A stretch of DNA of 64,000 bases from IMG/VR virus record IMGVR_UViG_3300045988_080614; one strand, given 5' to 3'. The first letter of the stretch is position 1. Every line of letters starts with the position of its first letter. The position numbers and the translations under genes were made by a program. The notes under the pieces are model-generated. The model did no database searches and was not told the origin of the DNA. It worked only from the letters and a program-made list of their open reading frames with translations. Source of the stretch: a virus. Shown here piece after piece: positions 54,565 through 57,711 of the stretch.

Positions 54565-57500
54565 ATGAGTTGGAATGAATTAAGCTTAAAAGATAAAGCT
54601 GATTATATTAAAGAATCAGTTAATAATGGTATATATAACTTATCTGATATAAGAAACAGATATAATATGTATGCTAATGGTGGTTATAAACCATCAGAAA
54701 GTATTAAGAAAAGAATAACTAATTGGGAGGGTAGTTCAATGAGAACTAATAGGTCATTTCAAGCAGAAGCTAATGACTTTAATAGAGTAATACCATCAAG
54801 TATTAGGTCTAAATTATCTCAACAACAACTTGATGCCTTATATTCTTATGGATATAATGTAGGTATGGGTAATCTTAAGAAAAGAGTATTACCTACCTTA
54901 TCTAATTATGTTCAAGGTAAAGCATCAAATGAAGATGTACAGAAATCTATGTGGGCTTCAAAAGATAATGAATTAAGAGGTCTTACTACTAGAAGAAACA
55001 TTGAAAGAAGTTTATTTGGTGGTAAATATCAAACTGTATTCACTGGTACAGGAGGAACACCACATAATTATGGTTATACTGCTACTACTAATACTAATAG
55101 AAGTAGTAGTAATCCTTATCAAATACAGAATGAAGAATGGCAAGGTAAAAACTATTTAGGTGCATATAAAGGACTTCAATTATCTATGAATGATATTATG
55201 GGTAAAACTAAAGAGAATGATATTGATGACTTATTCTCTACTGGTATAGGACCCACAATATCTATGGATAATTTATTATCTATTGGTAATAATAATGTTG
55301 CTCCTGTACAGCCAGATTATAGTTATGCTAAATTATTACTATCAGATTTTGATTCAGATTTAAATAGTAATATGTTTGGCAATGGAGGTAAAATACCAAG
55401 AACCTATCAAGGAGATTTAAATCATTTAAAAGATGTAGGTTATCAGAAATGGAGAGCACATTTACCTACTAATTTAAGAGAAGAAACTTCAGATTATAAC
55501 TTATATGAAGCATATAAATCAGGTGCTAAACCTAGATTAGAATCTGATGGTTTTTATCATTTACCTTCAAGAGACCCAAGAACAAATAAAATATTAAAGA
55601 AAGCTACGCATCCTACTTATGGTATGGCTTTAAGAGAAGATGCTATAGAAGGATATTTACCTGTATATAATAATGGTGAAACATATACATACCCATTACC
55701 TTGGATTAAAGCTTATGGAGGTAAAATTAATATGTTTGCTGAAGGAGGTAACATGGATAATAACAGAACCGCAATGCCTGCTCATCCTGCTACAAATCCA
55801 TATAAAAGAAGAAGTTGGGAAACTGATGAAGAATATAAAGAAAGAATACAAGATTTAGATAATAAATCACAAGAGGTAGCATTAAATGATTCTACAGCAA
55901 TAAATAAATATAAAGAGTGGGAAGCTAATATACAAAAGCAACAGAAAATAAATGAAGAAAAGTCAAAAGCTATTACAATAGAAAAGAATACTAAGAGAGC
56001 AAAAACTCTAGAAAAAGAATTTAATTCTTTAAGAAATATACCATCTCAAATGTCTTCTAATGATACTATACAAGCAATAAATAAAAATATACCAGAAGCT
56101 TATAAACAGCAGTATATTAATAATATAAATATGTATAAACCAGCACTAGATACTATAGATTTAGGTATTAATTTATATAGTTTATATAATCCTACAGTAC
56201 CAGTATTAAGTGCAGGACTTTTAACAAATGGATTACAATTTGGACAATCTATAGTAGATGAGGATTTAGGAGCAACTGATTACAGTGCCTTAGCTTTTGA
56301 TACTTTAGGACTTTTAGGAGCCACAAATAAATTACCTACTAGATTAAGAATAGGTAAAAATAGATTTTGGGATATAGATAAAACAGCAGATTATTTAGGA
56401 GCAGGTCAAAATATTTTAGATTCTGCTGGTGATGTATATGATTTAAGCAAAACTGGTTATCATTTATATAATAATAAAGGTAGTAATAATTTATATATAT
56501 CTCCTTTTGAAAAGAGTTTTGATGAAGGAGGTAATTTAAGCTATATAGATGCAGATAATAGAAGAAGTAATATATTACTTCATACAGAAGATGGTAATCT
56601 ATATGATAGTGCAGGTAATAACTATACTCAAAGTTATTTAGATGAAGAACATGTACCTATAATTAAAGGTACTATGCCTAGAAATACTAGACAATATTAT
56701 GACCCTAATACTACATTAGAATTTATTAATGCTGCTACAGCCCCTATAAGTAACTTTAGTCCTAGTAATATTGTAGGTTCTATAAGAGAAGCTAGAGATT
56801 ATAATACATTTATGAATAGCTTTATGAATCAAGATAATACTGGTTTCTTTACTAGAGAATATACTAAAGAACACCCTTATATAAGTACATTAGGTAATAT
56901 AGGTGGAGATATATTATTAGGTACAGCTTTAAATAAAGGATATAATACTTTTAAAAACAATATAAATAGCAGAATTAATAAAAAATTGTTTAATAAAGCT
57001 ATTGATAATATAGCTAATATTTCTGATAAGAAATTAGATAAAATATATAATAGGATATATAATACTGGAGACTATGAAGATTTACAGCAATTAAGAGATA
57101 AACATTTTGAAATTAAAGCTAGTAATCCTTTAATGTCTAGAGATAAACCTATGCAATTATATCATACAGTAGGAGATGAATATAACCCTAATTTCAATAT
57201 ATTTAATCCTACTATTGAAGGTTCTAACTCTGCTATATATACTACAGACAATTTAGCTATGAGTAAATCCTATTCCTCTAAGCCTACTTATGGTAGAATT
57301 AAAAAATTATATTCTAATGCTTCTAAGAGTTATGATATAGAAGGTTATTATCAGCCTTGGAATGAAATACCTTATAATGGTAATATGTGGAGTACTAGAA
57401 CATTAGAAAAAGCAGTTAGAAGTCATCCTCAATATGGTATAGATAGATTAGTTATACATAATATAAAGGATTGGGGAGGTAAAGCTATGCCTAAAGGAAC

Positions 57501-57711
57501 ATTCTTAATGGATGGCAATATAAAGTCTTCAGGTACTGTTATAGAGAATTTAAATCCTAATGATTTAAAGTATTCTTCTGCTGTTACTTATGATGATTTA
57601 GGCAATATAATCCCTCTATCTGAAAGAGATAATTTTAGTATTAGTGATTTAAGATATAGCCTTATTCCACTGGGTACAGGAGCCACATTACTTAATTCAA
57701 AAGTTAAATAA
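54565..57711 (+). CDS. multidomain 1048-aa protein: N-terminal GH24-type lysozyme domain, C-terminal diphtheria-toxin-like (H-Y-Y-E) ADP-ribosyltransferase-like domain
   Basis: Lysozyme: ITNWEGS...LSQQQLDALYSYGYNVGMGNL. C-terminus: LYHTV (H867), AIYTTDNLAMSKSYS (Y892, Y903), SSGTVIENLN (E994). Three N-M-(F/Y)-x-x-G-G motifs at residues 34-40, 269-275 and 389-395. Confidence 0.6.
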   Translation: MSWNELSLKDKADYIKESVNNGIYNLSDIRNRYNMYANGGYKPSESIKKRITNWEGSSMRTNRSFQAEANDFNRVIPSSIRSKLSQQQLDALYSYGYNVGMGNLKKRVLPTLSNYVQGKASNEDVQKSMWASKDNELRGLTTRRNIERSLFGGKYQTVFTGTGGTPHNYGYTATTNTNRSSSNPYQIQNEEWQGKNYLGAYKGLQLSMNDIMGKTKENDIDDLFSTGIGPTISMDNLLSIGNNNVAPVQPDYSYAKLLLSDFDSDLNSNMFGNGGKIPRTYQGDLNHLKDVGYQKWRAHLPTNLREETSDYNLYEAYKSGAKPRLESDGFYHLPSRDPRTNKILKKATHPTYGMALREDAIEGYLPVYNNGETYTYPLPWIKAYGGKINMFAEGGNMDNNRTAMPAHPATNPYKRRSWETDEEYKERIQDLDNKSQEVALNDSTAINKYKEWEANIQKQQKINEEKSKAITIEKNTKRAKTLEKEFNSLRNIPSQMSSNDTIQAINKNIPEAYKQQYINNINMYKPALDTIDLGINLYSLYNPTVPVLSAGLLTNGLQFGQSIVDEDLGATDYSALAFDTLGLLGATNKLPTRLRIGKNRFWDIDKTADYLGAGQNILDSAGDVYDLSKTGYHLYNNKGSNNLYISPFEKSFDEGGNLSYIDADNRRSNILLHTEDGNLYDSAGNNYTQSYLDEEHVPIIKGTMPRNTRQYYDPNTTLEFINAATAPISNFSPSNIVGSIREARDYNTFMNSFMNQDNTGFFTREYTKEHPYISTLGNIGGDILLGTALNKGYNTFKNNINSRINKKLFNKAIDNIANISDKKLDKIYNRIYNTGDYEDLQQLRDKHFEIKASNPLMSRDKPMQLYHTVGDEYNPNFNIFNPTIEGSNSAIYTTDNLAMSKSYSSKPTYGRIKKLYSNASKSYDIEGYYQPWNEIPYNGNMWSTRTLEKAVRSHPQYGIDRLVIHNIKDWGGKAMPKGTFLMDGNIKSSGTVIENLNPNDLKYSSAVTYDDLGNIIPLSERDNFSISDLRYSLIPLGTGATLLNSKVK

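Follow-up and report, generated by a model that had tools for sequence, protein, structure and literature searches.

In the 64,000-nt stretch of DNA analyzed here (IMG/VR virus record IMGVR_UViG_3300045988_080614, referred to below as the window), which comes from a crAss-like phage, an open reading frame (ORF) at 54565..57711 on the plus strand encodes a modular protein of 1048 residues whose C-terminal region, residues ~802-1031, very probably adopts the fold of an ADP-ribosyltransferase (ART) of the ART-PolyVal family, that is, of the Tox-ART-HYD2 or 'N4-ART' clade of H-Y-[E/D] ADP-ribosyltransferases. From the N- to the C-terminus, the protein is built of a lysozyme-like domain, three modules delimited by linkers, a helical bundle and the ART domain. 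We interpret it as a modular phage protein of the polyvalent type, in which a virion-delivered, NAD+-using effector is joined to a wall-degrading domain, and consider this interpretation probable. An earlier sequence-only reading had proposed a diphtheria-toxin-like ART fused to a lysozyme-domain protein at this position, with a feature start at 57090, which falls within codon 842. The ORF is placed where it was claimed and has 1048 codons, and an ART domain and a lysozyme-type domain are indeed fused in this one phage protein. No other ART-like ORF was found in the window, the giant neighboring ORFs included, and neither a transmembrane segment nor a signal peptide was predicted for the protein.

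The isolated 248-aa C-terminus was matched by Pfam ART-PolyVal (PF18760, 'ADP-ribosyltransferase in polyvalent proteins') at residues 861-943 (E=4.3e-4, 21.5 bits), and besides lysozyme no other Pfam family matched the protein at E<=1. A family profile was built from the ART domain of the window and its few close relatives and searched against 1.84 billion cluster representatives (50% clustering). It retrieved 2,709 representatives at E<=1e-3 and 776 at E<=1e-10, including proteins of 3,000-6,000 residues that carry two to five ART units each; 17 of the relatives were giant proteins of at least 2000 aa. PF18760 was matched by 40 of the 64 mid-sized homologs at E<=1e-3 (best E=1.1e-17), no second Pfam family recurred among them, and the homologs P0106, P0101, P0102 and P0096 exceeded the gathering score of the family with 52.6, 50.3, 40.3 and 35.5 bits, respectively. 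Because these homologs were found with the domain's own profile, we assign the window domain to ART-PolyVal as a divergent member, a membership that is transitive via the profile matches of the homologs and not direct. The searches suggest that, among catalogued phages, the ART domain has diverged beyond the reach of BLAST: tblastn with the 248-aa C-terminus and with P0106 gave no match in 50,697 GenBank phage records. A profile search of all PDB sequences with the domain was empty at E<=10, PHROGs matched neither the C-terminus nor residues 151-800, and NCBIfam gave only a weak match to the lysozyme lobe of the protein.

The fold was supported by structure prediction. The AlphaFold2 model of residues 801-1048 had a pLDDT of 90.1 and a pTM of 0.87, with strands at residues 865-868 (containing H867), 891-894 (containing Y892), 912-917, 922-931, 961-968, 990-995 and 1001-1003. 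The ART-PolyVal core, residues 857-1003 (57133..57573, plus strand), is delimited by PF18760, this model, Foldseek, conservation and hhalign. Foldseek against predicted viral structures (BFVD) gave a best E of 1.6e-11 and 37 matches below 1e-3, most of them named ART-PolyVal-like and some from the crAss-like phages cr130_1, cr116_1, cr271_1 and cr4_1, and the best 50 matches in the PDB were all catalytic domains of PARP1/2/3 or tankyrase. As a check independent of Pfam-derived names, a compact family member, P0106 (225 aa), was also modeled (pLDDT 82.4). Its PDB matches included a RES toxin (E=1.4e-3, prob 1.00), tankyrases (prob 0.97-0.99), ParT and VPA0770, and among those listed nearly all were ART-superfamily proteins. 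The ART domain proposed by the sequence-only reading was thus found by both profile and Foldseek searches, at residues ~857-1031 and within the H-Y-[E/D] superclade, which also includes diphtheria toxin (DT), exotoxin A and PARP.

The P0106 model also resembled PDB 9k3a_B, a chain of 1071 residues from the pre-ejectosome of cyanophage A4, though weakly (E=0.029, prob 0.69). If this match were real, a podovirus ejection protein would hold an ART-like domain, but the match may be noise.

All of the motifs on which the DT comparison had been based were present in the translation. PMQLYHTVG starts at residue 862 and contains H867, SAIYTTDNLAMSKSYS starts at residue 889 and contains Y892 and Y903, 11 residues apart, and KSSGTVIENLN starts at residue 987 and has Glu at position 994. 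The DT residues named there (H21, Y54, Y65 and E148) were also correct, and the fragment-A sequence used for the comparison is 100% identical to PDB 1dtp_A. In the model, H867 (57163-57165) lies on strand 1, Y892 (57238-57240) on strand 2 and Y903 (57271-57273) in the helix after strand 2, all encoded on the plus strand. Conservation was counted over 108 non-close representatives, in which the H867 column is His in 90%, the Y892 column is aromatic (Tyr/Phe/Trp) in 96% (Y 62%, F 29%) and the Y903 column is Tyr in 87%. When the family profile was aligned with DT by hhalign (P=0.0019), H867 was paired with H21, Y892 with Y54 and Y903 with Y65. The alignment with PARP1 was not significant alone but gave the same pairings (H862, Y896 and Y907), and the spacing of Y896 and Y907 is also 11. 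These alignments were run in local mode, as global mode yielded meaningless end-to-end alignments.

The resemblance to DT does not extend to family membership. The window domain shares with DT, exotoxin A and cholix the NAD-pocket motifs YH[GT] and [FI]Y[ST]TD and the Tyr 11 residues later, but it belongs to the separate ART-PolyVal / Tox-ART-HYD2 / 'N4-ART' family; the protein has no Pfam match to Diphtheria_C and no translocation or receptor domain, E148 is not paired with E994, and DT is not among the fold matches listed for the window or the P0106 model. The distance from the conserved His to the Glu, which had been put forward as a further likeness, is indeed 127 residues in both proteins, but this equality is a coincidence because the lengths of the loops between H and E vary across the family.

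The fourth position of the proposed H-Y-Y-E signature fared differently from the first three. In the E994 column, Glu is found in only 15 of the 108 representatives (14%), beside 19 N, 13 gaps and 10 A, and in the hhalign alignment DT E148 falls opposite T991 (low confidence) and E994 opposite DT N151; E994 is therefore not the conserved catalytic Glu that it had been taken for. T991 (57535-57537), V992 and E994 (57544-57546) lie together on the modeled strand 990-995, plus strand. Indexed from the invariant K1002, this strand shows three acid patterns that are nearly mutually exclusive in a tally of 109 sequences (the window's own included), a result that is suggestive only, as the sequences are related. 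Glu or Asp stands at -10 from the Lys in 39 of the 109, for example in the 'PEMAVLNPNQLK' of P0106, which aligns without gaps to 'TVIENLNPNDLK' of the window, with V992 at the place of the canonical Glu. Asp or Glu at -11 without an acid at -10 was found in 18 of 109 and is typical of the giant polyvalent proteins, a pattern that, as read from the alignment, matches the 'H-Y-D' description of the family. The third pattern is E, Q or D at -8, that is, in the E994 column itself. E994 is a candidate substitute acid, since it is two residues past the canonical position and on the face of the strand to which that position belongs.

Other residues were weighed as the strand-5 Asp of the family, namely D960, D969 and the Asp of 'ADAVTYDD' (S1005 in the window), which the PARP1 alignment suggested. 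From the sequences the last of these was judged less likely, because compact members show the classic order strand, short loop, Glu-strand, turn and strand, with the Glu at -10.

The ART unit appears to be larger than the Pfam model. A three-helix bundle at residues 802-851 (56968..57117, plus strand; helices 2-14, 21-34 and 37-51 of the model) precedes the core and lies outside the Pfam model, and its residues Q841, L843, R844, D845, H847 and F848 are conserved. After the core, residues 1002-1031 (57568..57657, plus strand) form an invariant C-terminal motif, mostly past the end of the Pfam model, which is modeled at a pLDDT of 95-98 and consists of K1002, T1008-Y-D-D, G1013, I1016-P-L-S, R1021-D-N-F, D1028 and R1030-Y. 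Nowhere else is the family as strongly conserved as in this closing segment (among the 108 representatives, K1002 99%; I1016, R1021, D1028 and R1030 100%). In the giant polyvalent proteins it ends each ART unit, with the next unit beginning right after, and because of this we regard it as part of the ART domain. It is tempting to guess that it binds the phosphate of NAD or the acceptor. The protein ends in a Gly-rich hydrophobic tail, SLIPLGTGATLLNSKVK (57658..57708, plus strand), which was modeled with low confidence (pLDDT <55) and has similar counterparts at the C-termini of homologs.

At the other end of the protein, the C-terminal lobe of a GH24-type lysozyme domain was recognized at residues 61-147 (54745..55005, plus strand) by Pfam, PHROG and PDB searches. 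PF00959 matched well above its gathering score (E=3e-9, 37.7 bits versus 22.3; profile positions 40-125 of 125), PHROG endolysin families matched the N-terminal domain, and the PDB lysozymes 9kbs_A and 6et6_A matched the C-lobe only (PDB residues 95-181 of 184). The motifs quoted for this part by the sequence-only reading, ITNWEGS at residue 51 and LDALYSYGYNVGMG at residue 89, are present, and the putative catalytic Glu55 (NWEGS; 54727-54729, plus strand) lies just upstream of the C-lobe. The assignment as an N-terminal GH24-type lysozyme stands in so far as the profile score is concerned, with Glu55 as a candidate catalytic residue, but the match is limited to the C-lobe. The β-hairpin of the N-lobe seems to be missing from the sequence (54700-55044), as Glu55 and the C-lobe are just 9 residues apart. 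Residues 3-152, spanning the hairpin region, are 61% identical to a 237-aa 'lysozyme' of the Crassvirales phage cr116_1, whose gene belongs to the tail module and sits between IHF-like and tail tubular genes. Among ten longer ART relatives, two also carry a lysozyme domain, P0017 of the Phage_lysozyme2 type and P0018 of the GH24 type, both C-terminal. By comparison of these sequences, the pairing of lysozyme and ART is recurrent and independently assembled, with other lysozyme families or in another order.

The modules of the protein are separated by a short linker with the pattern [FY][AGD][NE]GG. A motif scan found four copies, all on the plus strand: YANGG at residues 37-41 (54673..54687), FGNGG at 272-276 (55378..55392), FAEGG at 392-396 (55738..55752) and FDEGG at 653-657 (56521..56535). 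The motif does not occur elsewhere in the 28,487 residues of the window ORFs, and shuffles expect 0.08 copies. Close relatives are deletion variants with breakpoints exactly in these linkers, since the relative L002 joins linkers 3 and 4, L008 joins 2 and 3, and L009 joins 2 and 4. In P0018 the linker joins the ART unit to the lysozyme ('DMRYANGGTLFANGGYKP' followed by GH24), and this junction is the same 'ANGGYKPS + lysozyme' cassette that forms the N-terminus of the window protein. The linker may be a recombination junction, a processing site or both.

The Glu-Gly-Gly codons of linkers 3 and 4 (55738-55764 and 56521-56535) read GAAGGAGGT, a perfect Shine-Dalgarno-like string, and at linker 3 an in-frame ATG (Met398) follows 3 nt after it. 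The string may be a coincidence of codon choice. Bacteroidales hosts make little use of Shine-Dalgarno sequences.

Two of the middle modules could be described further. The adaptor-like module at residues 293-408 (55441..55788, plus strand), detected by tblastn, is 43% identical to the N-terminus of gp73 of cr56_1 (BLASTP, E=2e-20, with TAG read as Gln), and a word-indexed protein search with this segment returned two fragments only. The gp73 gene (L005 5929-7458; NC_055890.1 83843-85372) lies in the head module, between portal/protease and the major head protein. Its product, annotated only as hypothetical, has the [FY][AGD][NE]GG linker after the adaptor module and a HEMGH zincin motif in its C-terminal half. 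The insertion module at residues ~397-652 (55753..56520, plus strand), with a charged start and then a Gly-rich hydrophobic part, is missing from the L002 and L009 orthologs and gave no family and no PHROG match. In the gp73 gene, 10 TAG codons lie in frame, a sign that TAG is recoded in the late genes of cr56_1.

In two of the close relatives the ORF is interrupted. In L002 (ENA ERZ28574253 scaffold_82, 91.8 kb), an in-frame TAG at 5328-5330, where the window has the TGG of Trp296 (55450-55452), leaves two ORFs in one frame, a lysozyme ORF of 291 aa and an ART ORF of 434 aa, and contigs of this kind came from three samples. The TAG is a nonsense variant, a read-through site or a recoded codon; because neither the L002 locus nor the window was found to have a suppressor tRNA, recoding is no more probable than a nonsense variant. 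In L009 (IMGVR_UViG_3300045988_055643), the lysozyme part (1946-3172, 408 aa) and the ART part (3256-3957, 233 aa) are in different frames, owing to a frameshift or a true split.

Much of this family has been described before. H-Y-D ARTs are the commonest protein-modifying domain of phage polyvalent proteins, often together with lysozymes, and their active site was defined as His on strand 1, Tyr on strand 2 and Asp on strand 5 (Iyer et al. 2017, PMC5512222). They were grouped with Tox-ART-HYD2, related to PARPs and to cholix and diphtheria toxins (PMC5512222), HYD2 itself was placed in the H-Y-E clade (Zhang et al. 2012), and 'N4-ART' and HYD2 were described alike again more recently (Iyer et al. 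2022, PMC9503650). The statement of the sequence-only reading that known phage ARTs are all of the R-S-E class is therefore incorrect, as both surveys describe H-Y-D phage ARTs (PMC5512222, PMC9503650). The family was predicted to be packaged and injected (PMC5512222; PMC9503650), and an ejected effector is the leading hypothesis for ART-PolyVal in the literature (PMC5512222). UniProt already labels ART-PolyVal-like proteins in the crAss-like phages cr116_1, cr130_1 and cr271_1.

The window protein shares with ART-PolyVal the fold, the His on strand 1 and Tyr on strand 2, the phage origin, the multidomain build, the lysozyme partner and the late-gene neighborhood, but differs in its score below the gathering threshold and in having Thr/Val in place of the strand-5 Asp/Glu, with E994 two residues downstream. 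Classic giant polyvalent proteins carry a fused zincin peptidase, helicase or methylase, whereas the window protein has none of these and consists of two recognizable domains and three modules without known identity. A zincin-like hub is frequent but not universal in polyvalent proteins (Iyer et al. 2017), and the 1048-aa protein has no HExxH domain; HExxH motifs are found nearby instead, in the HELGH ORF directly downstream and in the HEMGH domain fused to the adaptor module in cr56_1 gp73. Compared with PARP1/2/3 and tankyrase, which are among the best solved-structure matches of both the window and the P0106 model, the protein likewise has a helical subdomain before the ART core, and its IY..D..SKS..Y resembles GIYFADMVSKSANY of PARP1, but the matches are weak (E at least 0.01, TM about 0.3, 9-15% identity), the equivalent of E988 is lacking and there is no sign of polymer formation.

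The gene stands at a strand switch. Replication genes (DNA polymerase, NrdD and helicases) occupy the minus strand from 12.5 to 53.7 kb, and a plus-strand block begins at 54.2 kb with an 87-aa ORF, followed by the lysozyme-ART gene, a 141-aa HELGH ORF, ten tRNAs, small ORFs, a 130-aa HEIVH ORF and TerL from about 63150. The lysozyme-ART gene shares its strand with TerL, which begins 5.4 kb further downstream, and heads the late block.

Several observations weigh against an active, virion-delivered ART effector and have to be set beside other explanations. The 21.5 bits of the window domain are below the PF18760 gathering score of 31.2 and cover only profile positions 5-82 of 140, the PDB fold matches of its model are individually weak (E at least 0.045, TM about 0.3), the N-lobe hairpin with the Asp/Thr that in T4 lysozyme (D20/T26) accompany the catalytic Glu (E11) is not alignable in the lysozyme domain, and no experimental study of any ART-PolyVal member was found in the searchable literature. 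At the active site, the canonical strand-5 acid is absent, with T991/V992 in the window where 57 of the 109 sequences carry D or E at -11 or -10; E, Q or D at -8 occurs in 27 of 109, mostly the window's top-ranked relatives, and 11 sequences have in this column a Gln, which is not expected to support transfer. One possible interpretation is that the domain is a pseudoenzyme with the ART fold, in which His and Tyr were kept for the fold or for ligand binding while transfer was lost, and whose role would be structural or in binding, as part of a virion-associated lysin or cargo protein. The T991/V992 substitution is in line with it, as are the alignment of DT E148 to T991, the 27 of 109 sequences with none of the three patterns (neither acid nor Gln at -11, -10 or -8), the strongest conservation being in the C-terminal segment (K, R, D and R, about 100%) and not in the H-Y-Y triad, and the broken ORF of some close relatives. 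We nevertheless regard a pseudoenzyme as unlikely: H867, Y892 and Y903 are kept with their 11-residue spacing, and the -8 column of the closest relatives is mostly E/Q/D, residues that almost never coincide with an acid at -10 or -11. In this set of related sequences the pattern is suggestive of a relocation of the acid rather than its loss, and overall we lean slightly toward a domain that is catalytically active on NAD+. Activity of another kind, by an NADase or an NAD+ phosphorylase similar to RES that would deplete or reshape host NAD+ on entry or late, is brought to mind by P0106, which in the PDB comes closest to the P. putida RES toxin (RES-Xre system) and whose model also matched ParT and VPA0770 of the same group; some phage ARTs may be NADases or NAD+ phosphorylases (PMC9503650), and the invariant K/R/R could bind phosphate. 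However, the window's own model fits PARPs best and not RES, the H-Y-Y signature is that of PARP/DT-type transferases, Iyer et al. put the family with protein-modifying ARTs (PMC5512222), and depletion would presumably also harm a phage with an NrdD and many genes for replication, so that we think NAD+ degradation very unlikely.

The way in which the protein would reach its target has to be weighed in the same manner. According to the interpretation we prefer, it would be made with the late and structural genes, packed as crassvirus cargo and extruded at infection, when the lysozyme domain would help in crossing the peptidoglycan and the ART domain would spend host NAD+ to ADP-ribosylate a host macromolecule, or would consume NAD+, early in infection. 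Judging from context, we give packaging in the virion and ejection about an even chance; the main arguments for virion association, the recurrent pairing of lysozyme and ART and the segment shared with a head-module protein, are circumstantial. Here too there are points to the contrary. Virion proteomics of PhiCrAss001 reports no lysozyme or ART cargo (PMC10172136), the tRNA array and small ORFs separate the gene from TerL, and the ORF is broken in close relatives (by the TAG in L002 and the frameshift in L009); hence the lysozyme and ART parts need not be fused, and the phage may be able to do without the gene. The protein could instead remain unpackaged, as an intracellular endolysin or a host-takeover protein from the divergent promoter region; its lysozyme would then work at lysis, and its ART, like T4 ModA/ModB, would act on proteins of the host or the phage while infection proceeds. 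Past the strand switch at about 53.7-54.2 kb the gene comes second among the ORFs, 10 tRNAs and about 10 small ORFs lie between it and TerL, no other endolysin was recognized within the 64-kb window, and the protein has no transmembrane segment or signal peptide, all of which would suit such a protein. But 1048 aa with extra modules is atypical of an endolysin, the lysozyme ortholog of cr116_1 is located in the tail module, one module is common to the head-module protein cr56_1 gp73, the family is found mainly in polyvalent, late-gene contexts (PMC5512222), and the window covers two thirds of the genome, so that an endolysin may lie elsewhere. We consider an unpackaged protein quite unlikely.

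Known delivered proteins offer a measure for the proposed virion delivery. Large internal proteins extruded before the DNA are represented by T7 gp16 and by gp45 and gp46 of PhiCrAss001; no homology of the window protein to gp45 or gp46 was found. T7 gp16 carries a muralytic N-terminal domain. The likeness to such podovirus and crassvirus ejection proteins is in the large size and in the extrusion ahead of the DNA that is proposed for the window protein, and virions of PhiCrAss001 hold about 5.5 MDa of cargo that leaves before the DNA, with cargo sets that differ between clades (PMC10172136). T4 Alt is a functional model, being an ART packed in the head and injected with the DNA, which modifies host RNA polymerase and other proteins (PMC5512222), but it belongs to the R-S-E clade, has no lysozyme fusion and comes from a myovirus, and its packaging was shown experimentally whereas that of the window protein is only proposed.

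Among the neighbors, the 141-aa ORF directly downstream (57771..58196, plus strand), with its HELGH motif and three hydrophobic segments, keeps this position in L002 and L009. It gave no Pfam, PHROG or NCBIfam match and, from its motif and hydrophobic segments, may be a membrane zincin metallopeptidase. The 130-aa ORF with HEIVH, just upstream of TerL (62457-62846, plus strand), matched weakly to a SprT-like Pfam family (E=0.002) and a metallo-protease PHROG (E=0.004). The array of 10 tRNA genes (Glu, Gln, Arg, Ala, Met, Asn, Ile, Lys, Thr and Leu) spans 58301-59996 on the plus strand; a listed 103-aa ORF (59228-59539) overlaps tRNA-Lys at its TTG start, and its real start is probably an internal ATG. 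At the far end of the window, two giant ORFs of 1311 and 2457 aa (1067-5002 and 5004-12377, minus strand) may, from their position and size, encode RNA-polymerase-associated cargo proteins of crassviruses; the former had no Pfam or PHROG match, and the latter, covered by the Pfam scan only, had no Pfam match.

A broader proposal joins several of these features, and we offer it as improbable when all of its parts are taken together. The lineage would possess a cassette system in which effector modules (lysozyme, adaptor, ART, zincin and others without known identity) are swapped in-frame at [FY][AGD][NE]GG, and maturation may be a second function of the linker, with cleavage there by one of the small HExxH proteins encoded beside the gene and beside TerL. 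In the sub-lineage of the window, the catalytic residue would have moved two positions along the strand (E/Q/D in the E994 column), the domain would rely on the invariant K/R/D/R closing segment, and the acceptor would be something other than a protein side chain, for example nucleic acid or phosphate as in DarT, Tpt1 and RES.

The window protein does not define a new class, as the family, the H-Y-D signature, the lysozyme partners and the injection hypothesis were all published in 2017; the points of note are the size of the family, the odd active site and the linker-delimited cassettes. Since ART-PolyVal, with its 2,709 representatives at 50% clustering, is a very large family, biochemical results on a compact, confidently modeled unit of ~230 aa would inform thousands of proteins. 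No viruses are more abundant in the human gut than crAss-like phages, and little is known about the takeover of their Bacteroidales hosts. If our interpretation is true, a virion-delivered, NAD+-using enzyme would be a concrete factor of host takeover or counter-defense in these phages.

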